A stretch of 64,000 nt of DNA from Patescibacteria group bacterium. Lineage in GTDB: Bacteria > Patescibacteriota > Patescibacteriia > JBAZBY01. The stretch lies in NCBI GenBank assembly GCA_041671225.1, contig JBAZBY010000001.1:622940-686939 (forward strand), read 5' to 3'. The translations under genes and the position numbers were made by a program. Below the pieces are notes generated by a model. That model was not told the DNA's origin. It was given only the letters and a program-made list of their open reading frames with translations, and did no database searches. Position 1 is the stretch's first letter; each line of letters opens with the position of its first letter. Of the stretch, positions 4,150-59,712 are shown in pieces.

Positions 4150-4183
4150 CGCATATGTTGTATGCGCTATGCTGACCGCGATG

Positions 4184-5593
4184 TCAGCGAATGATCATGT
4201 GGTCCCTGTCGGGTCCGGTGCCGATGCGGTCGATGCGATGACCGCCGTGGCGCTCGATGGCGCGGATGTACTCCTGTGCCCGGAGCGGGAGCTTTTCGAA
4301 CTTCGTCTCACCAGTGATGTCCTCCTCCCACCCCGGCAGCTCGAGGTACTGCGGCTGAACACGCGCGTATTCCCAGGCGAGTTCCGGAATGCAGCCCTGC
4401 GGGAGCTGCTGTCCATCGAGCTCGTAGCCAATGCAGATTCGGAGCGTATTCAGTCCCGAGAGGCAGTCGAGCTTGCTGAGTACCAGCTCGTCCGGGTCGT
4501 TGACGTCGCAGAAGTAGACCTGCCACGTGCAATCGAACCAACCGGTTCGGCGCGGCCTGCCGCTTGTGGCACCGTACTCGTTCGCCGTGACGCGCAGATA
4601 CTGCCCGATCTCCTGGTCCGTCGCATGTCCGCCGTTGATCTTGGCGAGCATGTCCGTACACCAGGCCTCGCGCTGCTCCTTTGGGATGCGCTCTTCCTGC
4701 TGCGTCACCGCGTAGTCGCCGAGTTCCGTCACGAACGGACCGTTGCCAACCCGGCTTGCCACGAGCTTGTTCACGCCGATGCGCGTGCCAATGGCAGTCA
4801 CAGGAAGGCCGCTGCCCTGCGGGATTCCCGCAAAGGTGCACATGCCCTGGGTATTGAACCCCCAGGTGCCCCAGTACGGGTCCAGCATGAGCCCCTGCGC
4901 CCCTTCCCAGAGAATGGAGGCGCCGCGGTTCCATGCGTGGAGAAGCTCACCGCGTACATCCGTAACGTATGGCGCGAGCGCATCAGCAACCCCCAGCAGC
5001 TCATCAGCCATCTCTCGCGGACGTTTAACGAGCGGTGGATTCTCGAGGTGCTTGCCGAGCTCAGGATGTTCGAACACGGGGCGAAATGCCTCGTAGAAGT
5101 CCTTGAGCCATTGCAGCAACTCATCCGGGTGGTAGAGCATTCCCACCTTGGCGTTCAGGCGGAAGCCGATACTCCCGGCAATTCCGCACATCCCGCGCAT
5201 GGTTGTGTATGCCATACGTACGCCCTTGGCCTGCTCCACCCAGAGTTCAAGCGACCTGTGCCACTCGAACGAGAGGAAGCAACCGGCATCCACACCGAGA
5301 CTCTGGAGCTTCCCGCCCTTCTCCTGGAACTCCTTGATCTCAGCGAGGAGTTGAATGGGGTCAACCCGCACACCGCGCGCAAGCACGCAACGTGCGCCGG
5401 CGGCGGCACCGCTCGGTAGCAAGTGACCCACGAACTCGAAGTCGCCGACCTTGATGGTGTGACCCGCATTCGCGCCGCCTTCAAAGCGGGCGACGATGCT
5501 GCACTCTCTGCCGAGACGGTCGGTTTCCTTACCCTTGGATTCGTCGCCGGCAAAAACCCCGACGACCGCGTGGTTTACGCCTCGATGTGACAT
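4184..5593 (-). CDS. purA: adenylosuccinate synthetase
   Basis: GDESKGK P-loop, GGANAGHT, TSGRPRRTGWFD motifs; 469 aa; markedly GC-rich relative to neighbours. Confidence 0.9.
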   Translation of the reverse strand: MSHRGVNHAVVGVFAGDESKGKETDRLGRECSIVARFEGGANAGHTIKVGDFEFVGHLLPSGAAAGARCVLARGVRVDPIQLLAEIKEFQEKGGKLQSLGVDAGCFLSFEWHRSLELWVEQAKGVRMAYTTMRGMCGIAGSIGFRLNAKVGMLYHPDELLQWLKDFYEAFRPVFEHPELGKHLENPPLVKRPREMADELLGVADALAPYVTDVRGELLHAWNRGASILWEGAQGLMLDPYWGTWGFNTQGMCTFAGIPQGSGLPVTAIGTRIGVNKLVASRVGNGPFVTELGDYAVTQQEERIPKEQREAWCTDMLAKINGGHATDQEIGQYLRVTANEYGATSGRPRRTGWFDCTWQVYFCDVNDPDELVLSKLDCLSGLNTLRICIGYELDGQQLPQGCIPELAWEYARVQPQYLELPGWEEDITGETKFEKLPLRAQEYIRAIERHGGHRIDRIGTGPDRDHMIIR

Positions 5594-12314: not shown

Positions 12315-13664
12315 ATGGAAGCTCAGGGGAAGGACAACGCACAACAAGGAAGGATTTCTGTCTGGACGATTTCAACCATCGTACTTTTTGTGTTGTTGAT
12401 CGCCGGCCTACTGTATTGGGCGAGCATCACGCGAAAATCTTTGGCGCCTGCATTTAGCCGTAACGATATTGCTTTTACAGAACAAGACGCACTACCCGCG
12501 ACCATTGTTGATGATCAAAGCTTTTTGGGAGAAGATCCACGCTTGGTCTTTGCTGAGCGCACAGTTATTGGCTTTGATGCACAGGGAAATGGTCGTTATC
12601 ATACACGCCTTTTTCAATCTGATCGCTCCGGCGAACGCCTCTTTTCGTTTTATGAAACAGAGGATATTACTTTTGAGCAGCTCTCTCCGTACACCGATCA
12701 GTATCTTGTGATTCATTCCGCGTTGCTTGGTACGGATCCACAAGTAATCAACTATTCTGGAGAGCCCGCCGAGGATATTTTTGTTCCAGAGAGTATTGGT
12801 AATCTTTTTTCCGAGATCTTCTCTGCTGATGGGAATAAGCTTGCCTATATTGATTTTGGTGATGCGAATTATGGTACCGATGAATTGGAAGTGATTACTG
12901 AAACGAGTATTGTTGTTCGTGATAGTGCTACTGGTGAAGAAATAAGCGTACCAACGAGCATCTTCACGCATGGGGATATTCAGTACGCGCGTTTCTTCCT
13001 TCGAGCATTTTCTGATGACAATGCAATTCTCTACCTCTCAGCAGTCTGGCCTGGGCAGGAATTTGGCGATCCGGAATCACTTTTTGCCGTTGATTGGGCA
13101 GCGGGTACCGCGCAAGAACTTGTTTATTCCTCGCTCGAAGACCTTGGCGCAGAACAAGTATTAGAGCTCGTCGGTGTTTATCCAGAACATGGATTTGCGC
13201 TTTTTAATCGTGGCCCGCTCATTCCAGAGAGTGATGGAGGCCTCATTGACCGCGTCCGCTTGGAACGTTTTGATTTGGCGACTCAGGAAATGACCACGGT
13301 GTATGAAGAGGGTAGTGGCAGTATTTCAAATCTCATTCAAGACCCGCTTTCTCCGGATGGAACCCGTATTGTTGTAGAAAATGACCAAATTTCCGGAGGT
13401 TTTACCGTTGTGGACATTTTGACGAATGAGGTTTTACCCGTCGCTGAGAAGGGGGTATTTATGGGTTGGGCAGGAGATCGTAATCACCTCGTCTATGAGA
13501 TCCGCATGGATGATCCAAATGAAGGGAAGCCTTTTATTACACTGAAATCCGTCGATTTATCAAGCGGGAGTATTTTTGAAGTGTATCGCCAAACAGTTCT
13601 TCAAGAAGGCACTGGCCTGAACAAGGAAGGTGATATTCTCTACAGCTATATTACTACGAACTAA
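12315..13664 (+). CDS. membrane-anchored hypothetical protein with PD40/TolB-like beta-propeller repeats, inserted between fusA and tuf
   Basis: N-terminal TM helix (ISTIVLFVLLIAGLLYW); repeated S(A/P)DG(N/T)(K/R)(L/I) motifs (SADGNKLAYI, SPDGTRIVV). Confidence 0.55.
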   Translation: MEAQGKDNAQQGRISVWTISTIVLFVLLIAGLLYWASITRKSLAPAFSRNDIAFTEQDALPATIVDDQSFLGEDPRLVFAERTVIGFDAQGNGRYHTRLFQSDRSGERLFSFYETEDITFEQLSPYTDQYLVIHSALLGTDPQVINYSGEPAEDIFVPESIGNLFSEIFSADGNKLAYIDFGDANYGTDELEVITETSIVVRDSATGEEISVPTSIFTHGDIQYARFFLRAFSDDNAILYLSAVWPGQEFGDPESLFAVDWAAGTAQELVYSSLEDLGAEQVLELVGVYPEHGFALFNRGPLIPESDGGLIDRVRLERFDLATQEMTTVYEEGSGSISNLIQDPLSPDGTRIVVENDQISGGFTVVDILTNEVLPVAEKGVFMGWAGDRNHLVYEIRMDDPNEGKPFITLKSVDLSSGSIFEVYRQTVLQEGTGLNKEGDILYSYITTN

Positions 13665-23398: not shown

Positions 23399-23950
23399 AT
23401 GATGAAAGAAGTAGGAAATCGTAAAGGAGGACGCAAAGGCCGCGATCGCGAGGTCCGCGAAAAGCGTGAGTTTGAACAGCGCGTTATTGAAATCGCACGC
23501 GTTACTCGCGTGGTCAAAGGCGGTAAGCGTATGCGCTTTCGTGCGTGCGTGGTTATTGGTGATGAGAAGGGCCGTGTTTCTATGGCAATTGCAAAAGGAC
23601 CAGATGTGCAAATTGCCGTAAACAAGGCAACGAATCAGGCAAAGAAGAAGATGTTTCTTGTACCGATGGTCGATGGAACGATTCCGCATAGCCTGCGTAT
23701 TCGCAGGCACGCAGCAGATATACTCCTCAAACCAGCTCCGAAAGGTACGGGAGTTATGGCTGGCGGTGCGTTACGTCCAGTTTTTGAGGTTATTGGACTT
23801 ACGAACGTTGTTGCAAAGATGCTTGGCTCAAAGAGCAAGATAAATAATGTGAAGGCATTGCTTGAAGGTTTGCGCATGTTAAAGCCGCCAAAGAAAAAGC
23901 GAACAGTAAAGCCTGGAGCACAGCAGACTGAACACACAGAGAAGAAATAG
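23399..23950 (+). CDS. rpsE: 30S ribosomal protein S5
   Basis: 183 aa typical S5; followed directly by rplO, with no L30 gene in between. Confidence 0.92.
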   Translation: MMKEVGNRKGGRKGRDREVREKREFEQRVIEIARVTRVVKGGKRMRFRACVVIGDEKGRVSMAIAKGPDVQIAVNKATNQAKKKMFLVPMVDGTIPHSLRIRRHAADILLKPAPKGTGVMAGGALRPVFEVIGLTNVVAKMLGSKSKINNVKALLEGLRMLKPPKKKRTVKPGAQQTEHTEKK

Positions 23951-23953
23951 ATT

Positions 23954-24454
23954 ATGTCACTTTCACTCCATACACTTACGGCATCAAAACGACGCAGCAA
24001 AAAGCGCGTCGGGCGCGGGAATGCATCTGGGCGCGGCACATATTCAAGCCGCGGCTTGAAGGGTCAGCGTTCACGTTCTGGTGGAAGTCGCGGTATTATG
24101 CGCCGTAGTCTTAAGGCATTCTATGTCAAAACACCGAAGGTCAAAGGATTTTCAGGAAAAGAGGAAGGTCAGCTCACATTGAACCTTCGTGATATTGATC
24201 GCTTTTTTCCAAAGCATACCACTATTCGTTTGAAGGATTATTATGACGCCGGGCTCCTTTCTAGCTCAATACGTCGCGTAAAGCTTCTTGCACAGGGTGA
24301 ACTTTCACGGCCAGTACAGCTTTTTGTTCATGCCGCATCTCAGAGTGCACAAAAGGCCGTGGAAAAGGCAGGCGGACGTGTTACTCTGATTGTAGAGAAG
24401 CCAGCACGTGCCGGATCAAAGGGCGGAGAGAAGAAGTTCAACAAAAGTTCATAG
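23954..24454 (+). CDS. rplO: 50S ribosomal protein L15
   Basis: ...RVGRGNASGRGTYSSRGLKGQRSRSGG... Confidence 0.9.
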   Translation: MSLSLHTLTASKRRSKKRVGRGNASGRGTYSSRGLKGQRSRSGGSRGIMRRSLKAFYVKTPKVKGFSGKEEGQLTLNLRDIDRFFPKHTTIRLKDYYDAGLLSSSIRRVKLLAQGELSRPVQLFVHAASQSAQKAVEKAGGRVTLIVEKPARAGSKGGEKKFNKSS

Positions 24455-44341: not shown

Positions 44342-45271
44342 ATGCCGATATTTAGTTCGATCCTTGCCATTGCTGGCCTTTCGCTTTTTGAGACCATCAG
44401 CAGCATCGATAATGCGGTGATCAATGCCGAGGTGCTCTCCACCATGAGCCAGCGCGCACGGCGTTGGTTTCTCGTGTGGGGGCTCTTGTTCGCTGTGTTC
44501 ATCATCCGCGGTTTCCTGCCGTGGGCGATCGTTTGGGCGACCTCGCCCTCGCTCGGGCCCATCGGCGCGTTCACGGCATCGTTCAGCGGTGACCCGAAGG
44601 TCCACGCGGCCATTGAAGCATCAGCGCCGATCCTGCTTGCGGGCGGCGGCATTTTTCTCGTCTTTCTATTCTTCCACTGGCTCTTTTTGGAGCAGAAGAA
44701 CTTCGGCCTTCCGGGCGAGCGGTTCTTCATGCGCCAGGGTGTGTGGTTTTACACGGTGGTGTCCGTCATTCTTCTGGTGTCCGTGACTCTCGCCATTCGC
44801 ATGAATCCTTTGATGGCGCTCGGTGCCGTGGCCGGCTCCACGGCATTCTTCATCACGCACGGGTTCAAAGAGCAGGCGGAGAAGCAGGAGAAAGAGCTCA
44901 TGAAGCAGCACCTCTCCGATGCGAGTAAGATATTGTATCTTGAGGTCATTGACGCGACATTCTCCATTGACGGCGTGCTTGGCGCCTTCGCATTCACGCT
45001 GTCCGTGCCGCTCATCATCCTCGGCAACGGCCTTGGCGCAGTGATCGTGCGGCAACTGACCATCGGCAACATCTCGCGCATCAAGCGCTATCCCTTCCTC
45101 AAGAACGGCGCCATGTATTCCATCCTCGTGCTGGGGAGCATCATGCTACTGGATGCCTTTGGCTTGCACATCCCGCAATGGCTCTCCCCGGTGGTGACCT
45201 TCGTGACCATCGGCTATTTCTTCTGGAGATCCGTGCGCACAGGCCCGGCTCCCATACAAACCGCATCGTAA
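44342..45271 (+). CDS. TerC-superfamily (DUF475-like) integral membrane protein
   Basis: multi-TM; ETISSIDNAVINA motif; GC-rich. Confidence 0.5.
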   Translation: MPIFSSILAIAGLSLFETISSIDNAVINAEVLSTMSQRARRWFLVWGLLFAVFIIRGFLPWAIVWATSPSLGPIGAFTASFSGDPKVHAAIEASAPILLAGGGIFLVFLFFHWLFLEQKNFGLPGERFFMRQGVWFYTVVSVILLVSVTLAIRMNPLMALGAVAGSTAFFITHGFKEQAEKQEKELMKQHLSDASKILYLEVIDATFSIDGVLGAFAFTLSVPLIILGNGLGAVIVRQLTIGNISRIKRYPFLKNGAMYSILVLGSIMLLDAFGLHIPQWLSPVVTFVTIGYFFWRSVRTGPAPIQTAS

Positions 45272-49649: not shown

Positions 49650-50174
49650 ATGACTGAAGCGGAAATCCAGGAGTTTGTGCAGCAGGCTCGCGACGGGGAC
49701 GCAGAGGCGTTTGGTGTTCTTTTTGAGGAATTTAGTGATCGCGTATACCGTTTTCTCGCCATGCGCGTTTCAGAGAAGGAAACAGCGGAAGATATCACGC
49801 AAACGGTGTTTGTTGAAATGATTCAGTCGCTCGGTCGATATAAGAAGCAAAGGAATGCAAAGTTTTCGACCTGGCTTTTCCAAATTGCGCGTTTTCGGCT
49901 CATTGATCATTATCGCAGTAAAAAGGCGCACATACCGCTCGAAGACGTTCCAGAGCCCGTTCAGGAGCCCGCACACGCAGATCCAGTCCAGGACAGGGCA
50001 TTACGTGACGCTTTGAACACATTACCAGAACAACAGCGCACCGTACTGCACCTTCATTTTTTTGAGGACATGTCTCCCCAGGAAATTGCGGTCGTCCTAA
50101 AGACAACAGCAATCAATGTCCGCGTCATTCAGCATCGAGCCATTAAAGTTTTGCGCACTCTTATTACCATATAA
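49650..50174 (+). CDS. ECF-type RNA polymerase sigma factor (sigma-70 region 2 and 4)
   Basis: region 2 (VYRFLAMRVSEKETAEDITQTVFVEMIQSL) and region 4 HTH (LPEQQRTVLHLHFFEDMSPQEIAVVLKTT...). Confidence 0.85.
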   Translation: MTEAEIQEFVQQARDGDAEAFGVLFEEFSDRVYRFLAMRVSEKETAEDITQTVFVEMIQSLGRYKKQRNAKFSTWLFQIARFRLIDHYRSKKAHIPLEDVPEPVQEPAHADPVQDRALRDALNTLPEQQRTVLHLHFFEDMSPQEIAVVLKTTAINVRVIQHRAIKVLRTLITI

Positions 50175-50175
50175 C

Positions 50176-51504
50176 ATGCAATTCCCATTTTTATATAACA
50201 TACGTGAAAACAACGACGATCTTCGCACGCGTTTTCAGGCTATGCAGACCCCGCATCTTTCTGTTGAGCACAAAAAGCGTATGCTTGGGGAATTACAAAA
50301 AACATTTAAAAATGTAACAACAAAGGATGACGCTCGATATAGGATGCGTCAACCATTTTATTTTTTTAGACAAACAAAACCTATGATCCCGATACTCGCA
50401 GCAATCGTTATTCTTCTCGGTGGTACCTTTGGCACGGCAGCAGCTGCTGATGCCGCAAAGCCCGGCGATGTATTTTTTGGCGTTGATCGTGCCGCAGAAC
50501 AAACAAGTCTCGCGTTTGCCTTTAGTGGCGAGAAGAAGGCTCGCATACGCACGAATATTGCAGAAGAGCGCGAACGCGAACGCGTGGAGCTGCAACAGGA
50601 AGGCCGCACAGAAGATGCCGCTCAGGCAGAGGAGCATGCGGATGTTGCGCTTGTCCAAGCCATTGAGACGATCTCTGATGTTCGTGTAAAAATAGAGGAA
50701 AAGGGGAATGACGATGCGTTGCAAGCGCTTACCGAGGTTGAAAATCGTCTTGAGGCATTACGCCAGATGCGTGATGACCGGGATGGTGATGCAGATGACT
50801 CTGGTGATGACATGACGGCGAAGGGATTAACAGAGGCCGAGGTGCACATTGAGAATGGCGTTGCAGAGGTACAGGTGGAATACAACGATGAAAAGCAGAC
50901 GTTCGTTCTGGTGACGAGCGATCGCGATGCCATTATTGCCGAGATTGTCGCACGAACCGGCGCGACAGAAGAAGCAGTGCGCGCTGCTGTGCGTATTGAG
51001 GAGAACGGCGTTGTTGATGAACCTATTGATGATGTGTCTGATGATGACAGCGCTGATAGCAGTGAAGACATCAATGATGATTCTCATGCAACCAATAGCA
51101 GCAATGGCGAGCAGGAACAAGAGCAGGAACAAGAGCAGGAACAAGAGCAGGAACAAGAACAGGAACAAGAGCAAGAACACGTGAACGGCAACACCAACCA
51201 GAATCAGGAGCAAGAGCAGGAGCAAGAACAGGATCGTGAAGAAGAGCATGCAAACACCAATACATCGGATGATGAGGAGCAAAGTGATGACGAACAGAAT
51301 CAGGAACAAGTGCGAAACGAAATTCGCGTTGAAGTGAACCAAGAAGATGGCAAGGCAGAGATCCACACTCGCATCGGCAGCGCTGAGATGGAATGGGAGC
51401 TCAAGACAACAAATCAGAACACAATCCTACTGAGCATCAGCGGAAAAACTGGACTTTCCGGCGCACAGATTCAGGCCGTGTGGCAATATAGCGTCGAAGA
51501 CTAA
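50176..51504 (+). CDS. putative anti-sigma-factor-like single-pass membrane protein with highly acidic extracytoplasmic domain and (EQ)n repeat
   Basis: lies directly after the ECF sigma gene; TM helix MIPILAAIVILLGGTFG; start may be 50176 or 50242. Confidence 0.5.
   Translation: MQFPFLYNIRENNDDLRTRFQAMQTPHLSVEHKKRMLGELQKTFKNVTTKDDARYRMRQPFYFFRQTKPMIPILAAIVILLGGTFGTAAAADAAKPGDVFFGVDRAAEQTSLAFAFSGEKKARIRTNIAEERERERVELQQEGRTEDAAQAEEHADVALVQAIETISDVRVKIEEKGNDDALQALTEVENRLEALRQMRDDRDGDADDSGDDMTAKGLTEAEVHIENGVAEVQVEYNDEKQTFVLVTSDRDAIIAEIVARTGATEEAVRAAVRIEENGVVDEPIDDVSDDDSADSSEDINDDSHATNSSNGEQEQEQEQEQEQEQEQEQEQEQEHVNGNTNQNQEQEQEQEQDREEEHANTNTSDDEEQSDDEQNQEQVRNEIRVEVNQEDGKAEIHTRIGSAEMEWELKTTNQNTILLSISGKTGLSGAQIQAVWQYSVED
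51109..51180 (+). repeat. 12-nt coding tandem repeat (gagcaggaacaa)n encoding (EQ)n
   Basis: six near-identical 12-nt units; a second shorter block at 51208-51233. Confidence 0.85.
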
Positions 51505-54605: not shown

Positions 54606-55862
54606 ATGAGAAACATCAATCGAAATTTTAAACGTGGTCGCACGCAGGGTGGCGGAAGTCAGCGCTCTGGCAGCAAGTTTTATCGTGGGCAGGGTGGCGG
54701 CGGCGGACAGCGACGCAGCAGAGGTGGCGGCGGCGGACGTGGCCGTGGGACGTATATTCACCCCGATAGGTACATCAACAAAGCAACGGTCCTCGATGAG
54801 CAGAAACCGTATCAATCAAAGCATACCTTTGCGGATTTTGGCTTCTTGCCGATTCTTGATAAGGCATGTACGAGAAAGGGATACACGACCCCAACCGCTA
54901 TTCAGGATGACGCGATTCCGCCGATTCTTGAAGGCAAGGACGTGATTGGTCTTGCGAATACCGGCTCAGGAAAGACCGCGGCATTTGTGCTGCCAATTAT
55001 TCAACATATTGTCGCAACACACACGAGCACCAAGGCATTGGTGGTTGCACCAACGCGTGAACTCGCGGTGCAGATAGAAGAAGAGTTCCGCGCGTTTAGC
55101 AATGGCCTGCGCATGAACACCGCGCTATGCGTGGGTGGCGCGAGCATGGGCAAACAGAAGGCGCAGCTTGCCCGTCGCCCGCAGGTGGTGATCGGCACGC
55201 CCGGACGCCTGAAGGATCTCACCGAACAACACATCTTGAAGCTGGGTGACGTGGATGTGCTCGTGCTTGATGAAGTGGATCGCATGCTCGACATGGGCTT
55301 TCTGCACGATGTGCGTTTTCTCATCGACAAGACAAATCCGAATCGTCAGTCATTATGCTTCAGCGCGACCATCACGCCGGCGATTGAGAAGTTGCTCGCG
55401 GACATGCTCAAAAACCCAGTGACGGTTTCTGTGCGCACGAGCCAGAAGCAGGAGCATATTGAACAGGAAGTGATCAAGGTGCGGAGCAAGGAAGACAAAA
55501 TTACCATGCTTTTAAAGCTCCTTGCGCAGCCGCAGTTTGATAAAGTGCTGGTCTTTGGCGGAACCAAGTGGGGCGTGCAGAAGCTTGCAGACGCGCTCAA
55601 CGCGAGAGGCCACACCGCGCAGGCGATTCATGGCAACAAAACACAGCCGCAGCGTCAGCGCGCTCTCCGTGCCTTTAAGGAAGGCAAGGTGAAGGTGTTG
55701 GTCGCAACGGACGTAGCCGCGCGCGGTTTGGATATTCCCAACGTGAGCCAGGTTGTGAACTTTGACGAGCCAATGAGCCATGATGATTACATTCACCGCA
55801 TCGGCCGTACGGGCCGCGCCGGCAAAGCTGGGCATGCACTGACATTCGTGGTCGGAGGATAA
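54606..55862 (+). CDS. DEAD-box ATP-dependent RNA helicase with Arg/Gly-rich N-terminal extension
   Basis: Q motif, GSGKTAAF Walker A, DEVD box, SAT, HRIGRTGRAG motif VI. Confidence 0.9.
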   Translation: MRNINRNFKRGRTQGGGSQRSGSKFYRGQGGGGGQRRSRGGGGGRGRGTYIHPDRYINKATVLDEQKPYQSKHTFADFGFLPILDKACTRKGYTTPTAIQDDAIPPILEGKDVIGLANTGSGKTAAFVLPIIQHIVATHTSTKALVVAPTRELAVQIEEEFRAFSNGLRMNTALCVGGASMGKQKAQLARRPQVVIGTPGRLKDLTEQHILKLGDVDVLVLDEVDRMLDMGFLHDVRFLIDKTNPNRQSLCFSATITPAIEKLLADMLKNPVTVSVRTSQKQEHIEQEVIKVRSKEDKITMLLKLLAQPQFDKVLVFGGTKWGVQKLADALNARGHTAQAIHGNKTQPQRQRALRAFKEGKVKVLVATDVAARGLDIPNVSQVVNFDEPMSHDDYIHRIGRTGRAGKAGHALTFVVGG

Positions 55863-55954
55863 AGGGATTTTTGTGTCTAGAGGTTGACCGGGGTTGCGGA
55901 TACCAGTGCGTACTACGCCACGGGCAGAATCTCTTTTTAACTACCCGCGACCTA

Positions 55955-55963
55955 TGTTATACT
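55955..55963 (+). promoter_or_regulatory. extended -10 element TGTTATACT upstream of the heliorhodopsin gene
   Basis: tgnTATACT 31 nt upstream of ATG; RBS aaggggga at 55979-55986. Confidence 0.4.
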
Positions 55964-55993
55964 TTCTGCGTTAAAAACTAAGGGGGATTTTTT

Positions 55994-56776
55994 ATGCCAC
56001 AAATAATAAAAAAAGATCAGCGGTTTCAATCCTTACGCCGTTTCAATATTTTTATGGCCGTTTTGCACGCGGTGCAGGGCACGCTCATGCTGGTCTTGTC
56101 GAGAGATTTTTCTTTACCAGTTACAACGTCATACGTTGAGTATGATCCGTTTGCGGGTCAGCTCGCCGCAGAGACAGTAACAAAGTTTGAGTTCGCGATC
56201 GGCCCACTGATCGCTGGTTTCTTATTCCTCTCTTCCATCGCGCACCTTGCCGTGAGTCTTCCAGGTATCTATGAATGGTACAGGGAAAATCTCAAGAAAG
56301 GCCTTAACGTCGCACGTTGGGTAGAATATAGCGCATCATCTTCTTTAATGATCATTGTTATCGCAATGCTCGTTGGAGTCTATGATTTTTCCAGTCTCAT
56401 ACTTCTCTTTTCTCTGAATGCAATGATGATTCTTTTTGGCTGGGTGATGGAGGTTCACAATCAGACAACAGAAAAGACAAACTGGCTAAGTTACTGGTTT
56501 GGCGTTATTGCCGGCGCCGTGCCGTGGATCGTGGTTGCGCTGTATCTTTTTAATGCCGGCGAGGGCGAATTCCGCGCACCAGCATTCGTTTATTGGATCT
56601 ACTTTTCCATCTTCCTCTTCTTCAACGTGTTCGCTATCAATATGGTGCTGCAGTATAAGAAAGTGGGGAAGTGGCAGGACTACCTCTACGGCGAACGGGC
56701 ATATATTGTTTTGAGTCTTGTTGCAAAATCGTTACTTGCGTGGCAAGTATGGGCTGGTACTCTACGCCCTGTCTGA
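55994..56776 (+). CDS. heliorhodopsin (7-TM retinal-binding protein, inverted topology)
   Basis: 260 aa, 7 TM; family-diagnostic blocks ARWVEYSASSSLMIIVIA, MILFGW, GERAYIVLSLVAKSLLAWQ; conserved His25, His84, Glu111 and Schiff-base Lys245. Confidence 0.85.
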   Translation: MPQIIKKDQRFQSLRRFNIFMAVLHAVQGTLMLVLSRDFSLPVTTSYVEYDPFAGQLAAETVTKFEFAIGPLIAGFLFLSSIAHLAVSLPGIYEWYRENLKKGLNVARWVEYSASSSLMIIVIAMLVGVYDFSSLILLFSLNAMMILFGWVMEVHNQTTEKTNWLSYWFGVIAGAVPWIVVALYLFNAGEGEFRAPAFVYWIYFSIFLFFNVFAINMVLQYKKVGKWQDYLYGERAYIVLSLVAKSLLAWQVWAGTLRPV

Positions 56777-56881
56777 TAATTAGCCTGAACTGACGAAAAA
56801 CCTGCCCGTGCTCATCTTCTTGACAAGAAGGAGCGTTTGGCGTAGATTTGATTGTTCACTTTTTGCCGGATAGTCCGGTAT

Positions 56882-56930
56882 GGGTGGTGCGCGCACAGAT
56901 CGGCCCCGCGCGCGCCACCCAATTTTTTTA
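56882..56930 (+). terminator. strong rho-independent terminator after heliorhodopsin
   Basis: 13-bp stem gggtggtgcgcgc/gcgcgcgccaccc (one mismatch), then aattttttta. Confidence 0.65.
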
Positions 56931-56963
56931 TCCGCTTTCGCCCTGGCGCAGGCAGTGTTTCAT

Positions 56964-56992
56964 TTGACATGGGTGCTTTCTCATTCTAGGGT
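56964..56992 (+). promoter_or_regulatory. candidate promoter TTGACA-N17-TAGGGT
   Basis: ttgaca 56964-56969, 17-nt spacer, tagggt 56987-56992; RBS aggagg at 57028. Confidence 0.35.
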
Positions 56993-57038
56993 GAACCTGT
57001 CCAACTCTCTGTGCTCTATGCACATACCAGGAGGCAGT

Positions 57039-57410
57039 ATGTCGTCGCCCCTTACCTCCGAGAACGTCGTTCACATCATCCTGCAGCTCTGTGCAGCGGT
57101 GGCGCCAAATGCGCGGACTTCATTCCTGACCTCCACGCTCTGGAAGGCCATCTGCAAGGCCTATCAGAGTGACGGTATTCAGGATGCCCTTCCCGATGGG
57201 CATTTCCGGTCCGATCTCTTCGACATGTGGTTCCGGAACGCCCTCCGCGAGGCGACCCACAAGGGTTACCTCGCCCCTGCAGGCGTGGAACGACTCTTCC
57301 TCACAGATATCGGCCGCACCATGGCCGAGATGCATCCGCTGCCGGAGGCGCTTGCTCCACTTGCGGAGTACCTTCAGGCGACCGCACCCAAGGCGCCCGT
57401 GGTGCCATGA
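57039..57410 (+). CDS. hypothetical protein (GC-rich)
   Basis: start moved to the ATG with aggagg RBS; the annotated upstream start overlaps the terminator. Confidence 0.4.
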   Translation: MSSPLTSENVVHIILQLCAAVAPNARTSFLTSTLWKAICKAYQSDGIQDALPDGHFRSDLFDMWFRNALREATHKGYLAPAGVERLFLTDIGRTMAEMHPLPEALAPLAEYLQATAPKAPVVP

Positions 57411-57529
57411 TCCCCGTGCGGCATCGCGCCGCTTTTGTCCATCGGGCGGCAGACCATTCCCAACGTCTGCCGCCCCTCCCTTTTATTTACAATAAAAAAA
57501 CGAGCCCCCTTTTGGTAAGCGGTGGGGGC

Positions 57530-58459
57530 TCATGTATCCGCATGTTGGAGGACTGAGAGAACGAGACATCTCTTCTCGTTCGGCCTGAGTTTGTACGGCA
57601 GGTCTGCAAAGACCAGCTCCACAAGCTTGCTGGCAGTCCGAGAAGGATCCCCGAGCCGGTACATCTGTACCCGGCGCAGGATCTGCTGCGTGGATCTCTC
57701 GAGGATGGCGAGGCGTTCCTCAACGTCCTCAATTGGGTCGCCGTGGCCGGGGATGATCATCCTCGGCTTCAGCGCTTTGATCCGCACGAGCGACTTCTGT
57801 GCCGCAAACAGGTTTCCCTCGGGAGTGTAGATCGAGGGGACCCTTTCGCGGCCAGGCCGGTTAGGGACGAGGTCGCCCCCGATCAGGATTCCGTACTCCG
57901 GAATCCAGAAGGCGACTTCCCCTGGGCAGTGTCCGGGCGTTTCTATGACTTCGACGTGATATCCGTCGAACTGAAACCCATCCGGAGGGAACGGCCCATA
58001 GACGCCGCCGTCCTCACCCCACATGCCTTCATGCCGCATCTTTGGTCCGCAAGCGATGCTTGCAACTGCTCCGTAGAGCTTTGCAAGTGGCTTGTCGGCG
58101 GCTGTGAAGCCAGTGAGGCTGTTGCCTGTCTTCCTTGCCAGAATACGTCCGGCTTCAAGGAGTTTCCCCGGAGAGCGGAGACTCCAGAAGCTTTTCTTAT
58201 GGCAGTAGACAGGCACGCCGGGCGCAACATGGCGGAGATTGCCAATATGGTCCGGGTGTGAATGGGTCAGGAGCACCCCGTGGAGGTTTGCCCCTGTTGC
58301 GCGCCTGAGTCTCGCAAGTTCCCAGTTTTTGCCGAAAGCGAACCAGAACAGGCCAGGGTCGGTCATGAGTAGCGAGTTATTCTTCCGTCGCATCACGAGA
58401 GATGGGGGACTGTCCATGGCTCCGGGAAGGAGCCACAGATTCGGTGCGAGTTCTCGCAT
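57530..58459 (-). CDS. MBL-fold metallo-hydrolase
   Basis: LLTHSHPDHIGN (HxHxDH) zinc motif, later His/Asp ligands. Confidence 0.75.
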   Translation of the reverse strand: MRELAPNLWLLPGAMDSPPSLVMRRKNNSLLMTDPGLFWFAFGKNWELARLRRATGANLHGVLLTHSHPDHIGNLRHVAPGVPVYCHKKSFWSLRSPGKLLEAGRILARKTGNSLTGFTAADKPLAKLYGAVASIACGPKMRHEGMWGEDGGVYGPFPPDGFQFDGYHVEVIETPGHCPGEVAFWIPEYGILIGGDLVPNRPGRERVPSIYTPEGNLFAAQKSLVRIKALKPRMIIPGHGDPIEDVEERLAILERSTQQILRRVQMYRLGDPSRTASKLVELVFADLPYKLRPNEKRCLVLSVLQHADT

Positions 58460-58578
58460 CGCAGGCTCCTTTCGGAGTAGGTTGTGAATGTTCAGGCGTT
58501 TCCCGAACCTTACATTCTACCATATTTATATAAAAATGTCAATATACGGCAAAAAATACACCTGCTATACTTCAGTGC

Positions 58579-59712
58579 GTGATCTCCTTTGCTATACAAA
58601 AAAGTTCAAAAAGATCCCGTGCACGACTCGGGATTTTAAAGACCCCGCATGGCGAAGTGGAAACGCCGACGCTGGTACCGGTTGCAACACAGGCTGTGGT
58701 CAAGACTCTCACCAGCGAGCAGGTTGTGCAGACCGGCACCCAGCTTCTGATCGCCAATACGTTCCATCTGCACTTGAAGCCCGGTGAGAAGGCGGTGGGG
58801 CGTGCAGGGGGCCTGCATAACTTCATGCAATGGAAGCGTCCGCTCATGACCGATTCCGCGGGCTATCAGGTGTTCAGCCTTGGCTTTGGCATGGATCTAG
58901 GGAGCGGGAAGATCGGCAAGGGGGGAGAGAAGCGCGTGCAACAGGGAGAGCAGCCGCAGCACATACGCATCACGGAACGCGGCGTGCACTTCCGCTCGCC
59001 CGTTGATGGGAGCAAGCTTTTCATCGGGCCAAAAGAGTCCATGGCTATACAGGAGCAGCTCGGTGCAGATATCATGTTCGCGTTCGACGAATGCCCGCCG
59101 CCCAGTGCGAGCAAGGCATACATGGCGGCATCGGTTGAGCGTACGCATCGCTGGGCGCTGCAGTGCATCAAAATGCACAAGACGCGGCAGGCGCTTTTTG
59201 GCATCGTGCAGGGCGGGAAGTATAAAGATCTCCGCCGTAAGAGCGCGGAGTATATCGCGAGCCTCCCGTTTTCGGGCTTTGGCATCGGCGGGGAATTCGG
59301 CGCAGACAAAGCGACCATGGAGAAAATGGTCGGCTGGGTTACGGATGTACTTCCAGAAAAAAAGCCGCGGCACTTGCTCGGCATCGGCCACCCGGAGGAT
59401 ATTCCGCGCATCATCAAGGCGGGCGTGGATACGTTTGATTGTATCGTGCCGACGCATTATGCGCGCCATGGCACTGCGTTCATTGGTACAGGGCGGCTGG
59501 ACATGACAAAGACAGTGATGCTGTCGCAGAACAGGCCGTTGGATTCGGCGTGCGCCTGCGCGGTCTGCACCACATACACCCGCGCATACATCAGCCATCT
59601 CGTGCGCGCAAAGGAGATCACCGGCCTTTCACTACTGACGTTTCACAACCTCTGGTATTTTAATCAACTTGTCGCAGGATACCGCAAGCAGATACAACAG
59701 GGGAAGCTATGA
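58579..59712 (+). CDS. tgt: queuine tRNA-ribosyltransferase (tRNA-guanine transglycosylase)
   Basis: SKRSRARLGILKTPHGEVETPTLVPVAT N-terminus, DCIVPTHYARHG, zinc site CACAVCTTYTRAYISHL. Confidence 0.85.
   Translation: MISFAIQKSSKRSRARLGILKTPHGEVETPTLVPVATQAVVKTLTSEQVVQTGTQLLIANTFHLHLKPGEKAVGRAGGLHNFMQWKRPLMTDSAGYQVFSLGFGMDLGSGKIGKGGEKRVQQGEQPQHIRITERGVHFRSPVDGSKLFIGPKESMAIQEQLGADIMFAFDECPPPSASKAYMAASVERTHRWALQCIKMHKTRQALFGIVQGGKYKDLRRKSAEYIASLPFSGFGIGGEFGADKATMEKMVGWVTDVLPEKKPRHLLGIGHPEDIPRIIKAGVDTFDCIVPTHYARHGTAFIGTGRLDMTKTVMLSQNRPLDSACACAVCTTYTRAYISHLVRAKEITGLSLLTFHNLWYFNQLVAGYRKQIQQGKL

Follow-up and report, generated by a model that had tools for sequence, protein, structure and literature searches.

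The 64-kb window analysed here (64,000 nucleotides of contig JBAZBY010000001.1, from a Patescibacteria group bacterium) carries a canonical, intact heliorhodopsin (HeR) gene in a bacterium from the Candidate Phyla Radiation (CPR; also called Patescibacteria), with family membership established by full-length matches to profile hidden Markov models and by the fold of the modelled product. The protein displays every testable defining feature of heliorhodopsins, and it lacks the hallmarks of both the proton-transporting viral type and the operon-partnered types. From comparison with characterised family members, we consider it likely that this HeR is a slow-photocycle light sensor or regulator that uses scavenged retinal and acts on a partner encoded elsewhere, and that it is not an ion pump. 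The finding as such is already known: this is an ordinary member of the family, CPR heliorhodopsins have been published since 2021-2022, and the exact protein is annotated as HeR by NCBI.

The open reading frame (ORF) begins with ATG. Its product matched the Pfam family PF18761 (E-value 3.6e-100, 334.7 bits where the cutoff is 26.7, covering profile positions 1-242 of 242) and the NCBIfam equivalog NF038020 'HeR' (349.6 bits against a cutoff of 100, positions 1-244 of 244). Both heliorhodopsin models were thus matched end to end and far above chance, confirming an earlier note on this DNA which had called a heliorhodopsin of 260 residues and proposed such a search. The best matches among solved structures were all heliorhodopsins, namely TaHeR (6is6/7u55, E 1.2e-76) and 48C12 (6su3/6uh3, E 4e-64), and at least 7,996 homologues were found at E <= 1e-20. 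NCBI entries MFA6512391.1 and MFA6943924.1, titled 'MAG: heliorhodopsin HeR [Patescibacteria group bacterium]' (MAG, metagenome-assembled genome), are identical to the window protein. One public gene call shortens it to 240 residues by starting at M21; homologues align from residue 2-9.

Individual residues were mapped by transferring the HMMER alignment to 48C12 numbering. Residues H23, H80, E107, S237 and K241 of 48C12 correspond to H25, H84, E111, S241 and K245 of the window HeR, and N101, W105, Y108, S112, N138, M141, E149 and W173 are likewise kept. His25, His84, Glu111 and Lys245 are therefore where the earlier note had placed them, with a lysine in transmembrane helix (TM) 7 that can be aligned, and the three sequence blocks it had named as diagnostic are located at residues 107, 145 and 233. 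In TaHeR the position aligned with E111 is the one altered in the E108D mutant structure (7clj). The TM7 motif SLVAK (S241-L-V-A-K245) fits the SxxxK pattern that distinguishes heliorhodopsins from the DxxxK of type-1 rhodopsins, and is the commonest TM7 motif among CPR HeRs in the survey of Chiriac et al. (PMC9166423).

The residues predicted to line the lateral opening to the retinal pocket are kept as well, with 48C12 F162/C166/G169/F206/N207/A210 corresponding to Y167/V171/G174/F210/N211/A214. Conservation was assessed in an alignment of the query and 40 of its closest database relatives (65-81% identity to the query). Across these 41 sequences the mapped active-site, pocket and fenestration residues are invariant or >90% conserved, except Y167 and V171, which are absent from the lists of conserved columns; G174, F210, N211 and A214 are invariant in the clade. 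The same set carries the carotenoid-site signature described in a preprint by Kornilov et al. (2025, bioRxiv 10.1101/2025.11.27.691015), which asks for an aromatic residue at 162 and at 206, a non-bulky one at 166 and at 210, and Gly at 169 in 48C12 numbering: here these are Y167 and F210, V171 and A214, and Gly174, with N211 in addition. The TM6 positions that mark the viral transporter V2HeR3, E191 and W195 (I199 and F203 in TaHeR), are I206 and F210 in the window HeR, which has no Glu at the former and no Trp at the latter and does not belong to the V2HeR3 type of transporter.

An AlphaFold2 model built from the 41-sequence alignment (pLDDT 86.7, pTM 0.80) contained seven helices and a beta-sheet in the first extracellular loop, with strands at residues 40-68. 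Foldseek comparison of this model gave TM-scores of 0.90 to TaHeR (6is6, 51% identity) and 0.86 to 48C12 (6su3), while type-1 rhodopsins reached at most 0.66 at 9-16% identity. With the helices placed by homology, the N-terminus and loops 2-3, 4-5 and 6-7 carry 14 Lys and Arg residues between them, and the opposite side carries 4. Under the positive-inside rule this distribution favours the inverted topology, with the N-terminus cytoplasmic and the C-terminus outside, in agreement with the N-terminus-inside arrangement that the earlier note had suggested checking.

Among known heliorhodopsins, TaHeR of Thermoplasmatales archaeon SG8-52-1 (6IS6, 7CLJ, 7U55) is the best match in sequence and in structure, at ~51% identity. 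The two proteins share the counterion Glu, the SxxxK lysine and the His pair, Tyr at the aromatic position of the fenestration (TaHeR Y164, window Y167), Met at 48C12 position 213, and Ile and Phe where transporting HeRs have Glu and Trp. Unlike archaeal TaHeR, the window HeR is bacterial and has a four-residue insertion in the TM5-TM6 extracellular loop. The founding member 48C12, from a freshwater actinobacterial fosmid (6SU3, 6SU4, 6UH3), is 47% identical over 247 aligned residues; the pocket is kept, but the window HeR has Tyr in place of F162, Val in place of C166 and Met in place of Q213.

Previously published CPR HeRs (Chiriac et al. 2022, PMC9166423; Bulzu et al. 2021, PMC8612252) come from the same host radiation and carry the same SLVAK. 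Chiriac et al. reported ~98 HeRs in 86 CPR genomes, Bulzu et al. discussed HeR neighbourhoods in Patescibacteria, and retinal scavenging was treated by Jaffe et al. 2022 (PMC9296517). Whereas most of the published CPR proteins are from Saccharimonadia, the window HeR groups with Kerfeldbacteria-like and unclassified Patescibacteria at 65-81% identity, and its nearest database relatives named HeR are from Patescibacteria, Kerfeldbacteria, Dojkabacteria, Berkelbacteria and Saccharibacteria. Among HeRs in the protein database, the one most similar to it (P0012, 81% identity) is encoded on a 6.1-kb contig, designated L085, with a guanine-plus-cytosine (GC) content of 55.6%.

The earlier note had regarded heliorhodopsin function as unresolved, which is partly outdated, since functions have been shown for other HeRs. 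These are the regulation of glutamine synthetase by AbHeR (PMC9529153), of photolyase by TfHeR (PMC9769723) and of the ABC transporter OmrDE by OcHeR (PMC11109279), and proton transport by viral HeRs (PMC9448325). AbHeR, TfHeR and OcHeR belong to the same family as the window HeR and have positive intracellular loops, and similar slow-photocycle chemistry would be expected here; they share an operon with their partners, whereas the window HeR has no adjacent partner gene. The viral protein, V2HeR3 of Emiliania huxleyi virus 202, resembles the window HeR in its counterion Glu and in having E215 (equivalent to window E234), but it has E191/W195 where the window HeR has I206/F210.

In the mechanism that we propose, the window HeR would bind all-trans retinal that the cell does not make, the chromophore entering from the environment or from a host via the lateral fenestration. 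Green light would isomerise the retinal, and the Schiff-base proton would move to an internal cluster of His, Glu and water rather than across the membrane. A long-lived photoproduct would then change the cytoplasmic loops, which hold 9 of the 18 Lys and Arg residues of the protein, and these positively charged loops may bind a protein partner, encoded elsewhere in the genome, and modulate it, with a response to light or to photo-oxidative stress as the likely output. Published observations are in keeping with these steps: HeRs regulate partner enzymes via intracellular loops (PMC11109279), CPR HeRs have been linked to oxidative-stress defence (PMC9166423; PMC8612252), and blh is missing from rhodopsin-bearing Saccharibacteria, and external retinal is bound rapidly by HeR through an opening (PMC9296517). 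As the earlier note had observed, no blh or crt genes (beta-carotene dioxygenase, lycopene cyclase, phytoene synthase or desaturase families) occur among the Pfam matches of the genes in the window.

The host is a CPR/Patescibacteria bacterium. The gene for uS5 ends at 23950 and that for uL15 starts at 23954, leaving no uL30 in between, and the absence of uL30 is a CPR trait. For the DEAD-box helicase, TGT, UPF0182 and 123-residue proteins, as for HeR, NCBI has identical entries under the label Patescibacteria group bacterium on a contig of 1,028,488 bp, and SecY corresponds to a shorter entry there (411 residues) of the same 90% cluster. Lastly, the great majority of the top HeR relatives in the genome collection (<= 71% identity) are MAGs of Patescibacteria (Kerfeld-, Dojka-, Berkel- and Saccharibacteria), with HeRs of Actinomycetota and Dehalococcoidia ranking after them; several of the top relatives come from records titled 'uncultured Gammaproteobacteria', titles that were treated as unreliable labels. 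Together with the length of the contig (~1 Mb), the missing uL30 and the CPR relatives bear out the earlier description of a CPR-like small genome.

At the locus itself the neighbours reported earlier were all found, with a DEAD-box helicase gene upstream and, downstream, a hypothetical gene (hyp123) and an MBL-fold hydrolase gene on the minus strand, beyond which lies TGT (Table 1). HeR is a stand-alone gene, more than 100 nt from both flanking genes, with promoter-like and terminator-like elements and without a conserved neighbour. When 12 neighbours from the window were compared by tblastn with 80 related HeR loci, each had 0-3 matches (DEAD 1/80, TGT 2/80, MBL and hyp123 0/80), and when 1,236 ORFs were clustered de novo, the count of loci with a given family no more than three genes away from HeR did not exceed 7 of 71; an operon partner or a conserved neighbourhood was rejected on these counts. 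The orphan downstream proteins of 123, 195 and 187 residues had no match in Pfam, NCBIfam or PHROGs, and the Pfam matches of the window genes included no photolyase, glutamine synthetase, histidine kinase or second rhodopsin. For the gene next to HeR an alternative call exists, of 176 residues with a start at 56880. A 2-nt indel in L085 (near 1640) breaks this extended frame, which supports the 123-residue protein and its start at 57039.

Table 1. Features of the heliorhodopsin locus, in window coordinates; DNA identities are to contig L085
Feature	Positions	Strand	Remarks
DEAD-box RNA helicase gene	54606..55862	+	upstream of HeR, 131-nt gap; GC 0.554
Extended -10 promoter-like element, TGTTATACT (TG-n-TATACT)	55955..55963	+	30 nt upstream of ATG; consensus match
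Shine-Dalgarno-like element, AAGGGGGA	55980..55987	+	7 nt upstream of ATG
Heliorhodopsin coding sequence	55994..56776	+	260 residues; 7 TM helices and beta-sheet in extracellular loop 1; H25, H84, E111 (counterion), S241, K245 (Schiff base)
HeR, first two-thirds		+	DNA identity 57-78%
HeR, part of last third	56523..56702	+	DNA identity 93-97%
Promoter-like site, TTGACA-17-TAGATT	56820..56848	+	HeR 3' region; identical in L085
Noncoding DNA	56823..57002		DNA identity 93-97%
7-bp hairpin, UGCCGGA/UCCGGUA	56864..56880	+	predicted by folding
Intrinsic-terminator-like element	56881..56930	+	14-bp GC-rich stem (56881-56921), 13-nt loop, U7 (56924-56930); identical in L085
hyp123, orphan soluble protein of 123 residues	57039..57410	+	downstream of HeR, 262-nt gap; GC 0.618; protein 65% identical in L085; DNA identity 70-85%
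MBL-fold hydrolase gene		-	GC 0.590; DNA identity 95-98%
TGT gene			GC 0.572; DNA identity 80-97%

Two further observations concern genes of families that have been, or might be, associated with heliorhodopsins. A TerC/DUF475 gene is present at 44342-45271, 11 kb upstream of HeR, and TerC is one of the published groups of HeR neighbours. Among the 80 related loci, a pyrimidine-dimer DNA glycosylase (PF03013, E 3.2e-25) lies less than 8 kb from HeR in seven (L012, L016, L020, L034, L037, L041 and L049). It is the only recurrent neighbour that can be named with a light-related function and is not encoded in the window; its proximity to HeRs fits the published link between heliorhodopsins and light-damage responses (PMC8612252; PMC9166423).

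With regard to expression, the earlier note had assigned to HeR its own extended -10 promoter, a strong ribosome-binding site and a strong terminator. The first two sequences are present as it described them, the -10 as a match to the consensus. The corresponding -35 is weak (TTTAAC, at a spacing of 16 nt). The window has TGnTATACT upstream of the genes for EF-Tu, a response regulator and TGT as well, so the HeR element, while still a consensus match, fits the promoter style of the genome. The style of the promoter-like site 3' of HeR, TTGACA-N17-TAGnnT, is common to sites upstream of the S12, DEAD, MBL and helix-turn-helix genes. A terminator between the DEAD gene and HeR was considered and rejected, the fold of 55850-55995 being no more stable than shuffled sequences (z +0.35).

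The claim of a strong terminator belonging to HeR stands in part. A strong hairpin followed by U7 does exist, with a folding energy of -39.5 kcal/mol (z -6.05; 0 of 200 shuffles were as stable); its 13-nt loop caused a simple terminator scan to miss it. It is the first terminator-like element downstream of HeR, but it begins 105 nt past the stop codon, overlaps the start (56880) of the alternative downstream gene call, and follows a promoter-like site within noncoding DNA that is conserved, and HeR may not be its only owner.

The composition of HeR is typical of the window (GC 0.462 and third-position GC, or GC3, 0.521, against 0.491 +/- 0.043 and 0.490 +/- 0.083 for 79 window genes), and a recently acquired island was rejected on this basis (GC z ~ -0.7, GC3 z ~ +0.4). 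The earlier comparison with ribosomal genes also holds, the ribosomal-protein genes having a GC of 0.480. By contrast with the 0.49-GC genome, the DEAD gene (54606-55862) and the hyp123, MBL and TGT genes (57039-59712) are GC-rich outliers, the downstream block reaching GC 0.57-0.62 and GC3 0.67-0.73. In L085 the gene order is HeR, hyp123, an extra ORF of 102 residues, MBL on the minus strand, and TGT; both flanks of that contig carry different genes, and the DEAD gene is not upstream of HeR. The MBL and TGT proteins are 92% identical to their L085 counterparts.

Identity between the two loci is uneven at the level of DNA (Table 1). Relative to the L085 HeR (positions 532-1314 of that contig), third-codon-position identity is 0.46 over codons 1-177 and 0.80-0.95 over codons 181-240. 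This jump speaks for recombination between lineages of CPR bacteria, the breakpoint being within HeR and the gene's last third having a recombinant appearance. The mosaic also suggests that the GC-rich downstream block came by lateral exchange from a GC-richer CPR relative. The earlier note's view of HeR as native therefore fits its genome-typical composition and most of the gene, but not the entire locus: the last third of HeR, together with the downstream DNA, looks like a mosaic with a GC-richer relative. The mosaic hints at exchange of HeR alleles among CPR lineages, a matter of minor evolutionary interest. Further compositional outliers in the window are two ORFs of no known family (416 and 55 residues, GC 0.61-0.63; 4169-5590) and the TerC/DUF475 gene, with a GC3 of 0.77.

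The noncoding block that follows HeR (56777-57040, ~260 nt) is ~97% identical to L085, whereas identity is only 57-85% in the first two-thirds of HeR and in hyp123. Within the block lie the promoter-like site, the 7-bp hairpin and the terminator-like element, and it is known in two near-identical copies, those of the window and L085. The block might have a function of its own connected with the HeR locus, either as a small RNA of ~75 nt transcribed from the promoter-like site at 56820-56848 and ending at the terminator-like element at 56881-56930, or as the leader of the orphan 123-residue gene, whose product would then be a lineage-specific HeR partner; we regard this as quite unlikely. A recombination tract of recent origin accounts for the conservation just as well, since the MBL gene nearby shows 95-98% identity too. 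Rfam at gathering thresholds detected three tRNAs elsewhere in the window and nothing in the HeR flanks, and at E <= 5 the interval 55850-57060 gave chance-level matches only, the better one being ctRNA_pGA1 at 15.9 bits against a gathering threshold of 45. No further copy of the block was found in the window, in the 80 HeR loci or, by exact 23-mer scan, in JGI metagenome contigs.

Several points weigh against the view that the window HeR is a light sensor with scavenged retinal and a distant partner. That view is carried over from HeRs with 45-50% identity, and for the window HeR itself the binding of retinal, the photocycle and expression are predicted; the conserved pocket residues support retinal binding and the photocycle indirectly. 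No candidate partner adjoins the gene; its neighbours belong to none of the ten groups of operon partners described by Cho et al. 2024 (PMC11109279), and the window HeR is not one of the operon-partnered HeRs. The dependence on exogenous retinal put forward by the earlier note is reasonable and agrees with published work (PMC9296517), but the negative result for chromophore synthesis covers 6% of the genome (64 kb of ~1 Mb). The promoter and terminator are predicted from consensus and structure only, the -10 element is not conserved in L085 save for TATACT (the upstream region differs), and, with no hairpin in 55850-55995 more stable than shuffled sequence, read-through from the DEAD gene is possible.

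An alternative function would be light-driven or light-gated proton transport of the kind found in coccolithovirus V2HeR3, providing a fermentative CPR cell with light-dependent proton flux. Some HeRs are known to transport protons (PMC9448325), an energy supplement would be useful to such a cell, and the proton-accepting-group residues, Q216 and E230 in 48C12 numbering, have counterparts here in Q220 and E234, neither of which varies in the clade. However, E191, the described hallmark that acts with W195, is replaced in the window HeR, which has I206/F210 as non-transporting TaHeR has I199/F203; moreover no transport was seen with TaHeR and 48C12, the nearest relatives that have been characterised, whose extracellular half is hydrophobic (PMC9448325), making proton transport highly improbable here. 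We consider it unlikely that the protein is chiefly a two-chromophore light harvester, in which, following a proposal made for HeRs generally, an exogenous xanthophyll would serve as antenna at the fenestration and the orientation, in a cell without an outer membrane, would serve its uptake. The carotenoid-site residues (Y167, F210, V171, A214, Gly174 and Asn211) are all in place, four of them (G174, F210, N211 and A214) being clade-invariant, and CPR cells live attached or close to carotenoid-making microbes (PMC9296517). Nevertheless, the proposal comes from a preprint based on structures and docking, in which energy transfer was not demonstrated, and by its criteria 91% of HeRs carry the signature, which therefore says little about this one. 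It also specifies no output and is compatible with light sensing rather than an alternative to it.

If HeR instead worked with a local partner, either the DEAD helicase or hyp123 with the MBL hydrolase, the locus would be a light-regulated module. Partners are often adjacent to HeR in other phyla (PMC11109279), HeR is co-transcribed with a hydrolase in freshwater Actinobacteria (PMC8612252), an alpha/beta hydrolase is among the ten operon-partner groups (PMC11109279), and the order HeR, hyp123, MBL, TGT is kept in L085, the only close relative found. This arrangement is nonetheless very unlikely: the counts among the 80 related loci are those given above for each candidate, the DEAD gene is missing upstream of HeR in L085, the gaps of 131 and 262 nt include a strong terminator on the downstream side, the MBL gene is on the opposite strand, and the GC-rich outlier character of the hyp123-MBL-TGT block suggests a separate history. 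Finally, the absence of a retinal pathway from the window and the reduced genomes of CPR bacteria could be taken to mean that HeR is a relic, or a chromophore-free opsin in a cell unable to obtain retinal. Against this, the ORF is intact, and conservation of the pocket residues (41 sequences, drawn from at least 7,996 homologues) indicates purifying selection on retinal binding; over codons 1-177 the protein is 73% identical to the sister allele, whereas only 46% of third codon positions match. A relic or an empty opsin is thus extremely improbable, and the probable function remains that of a light sensor or regulator.

As one more intact HeR among several thousand homologues, in a lineage known to carry HeRs, the window protein adds little to the family. 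Its modest value is as a clean example: the HeR stands alone on a ~1-Mb contig, has no partner next to it and is accompanied by no chromophore pathway within the 64-kb window. This agrees with published work in which CPR cells are seen as sensing light by means of scavenged retinal, and the protein could serve as a tractable CPR representative from outside Saccharimonadia.

Elsewhere in the window, after the SecY, Adk and Map genes, the usual series IF1-L36-S13-S11-S4-RpoA-L17 is missing, and its place is taken by RuvX, a Glycos_transf_4 (PF00953) glycosyltransferase, DUF192 and L21 (ribosomal region 23399-24454). A 449-residue ORF with no Pfam match lies between EF-G and EF-Tu of the str operon (12315-13664). 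Directly upstream of the UPF0182 gene are, at 49650-51504, an extracytoplasmic function (ECF) sigma factor gene and then a gene for a DUF5667 protein of 438-462 residues, which is possibly an anti-sigma factor; towards the end of the DUF5667 gene the reading frame in the public contig is not that of the window.

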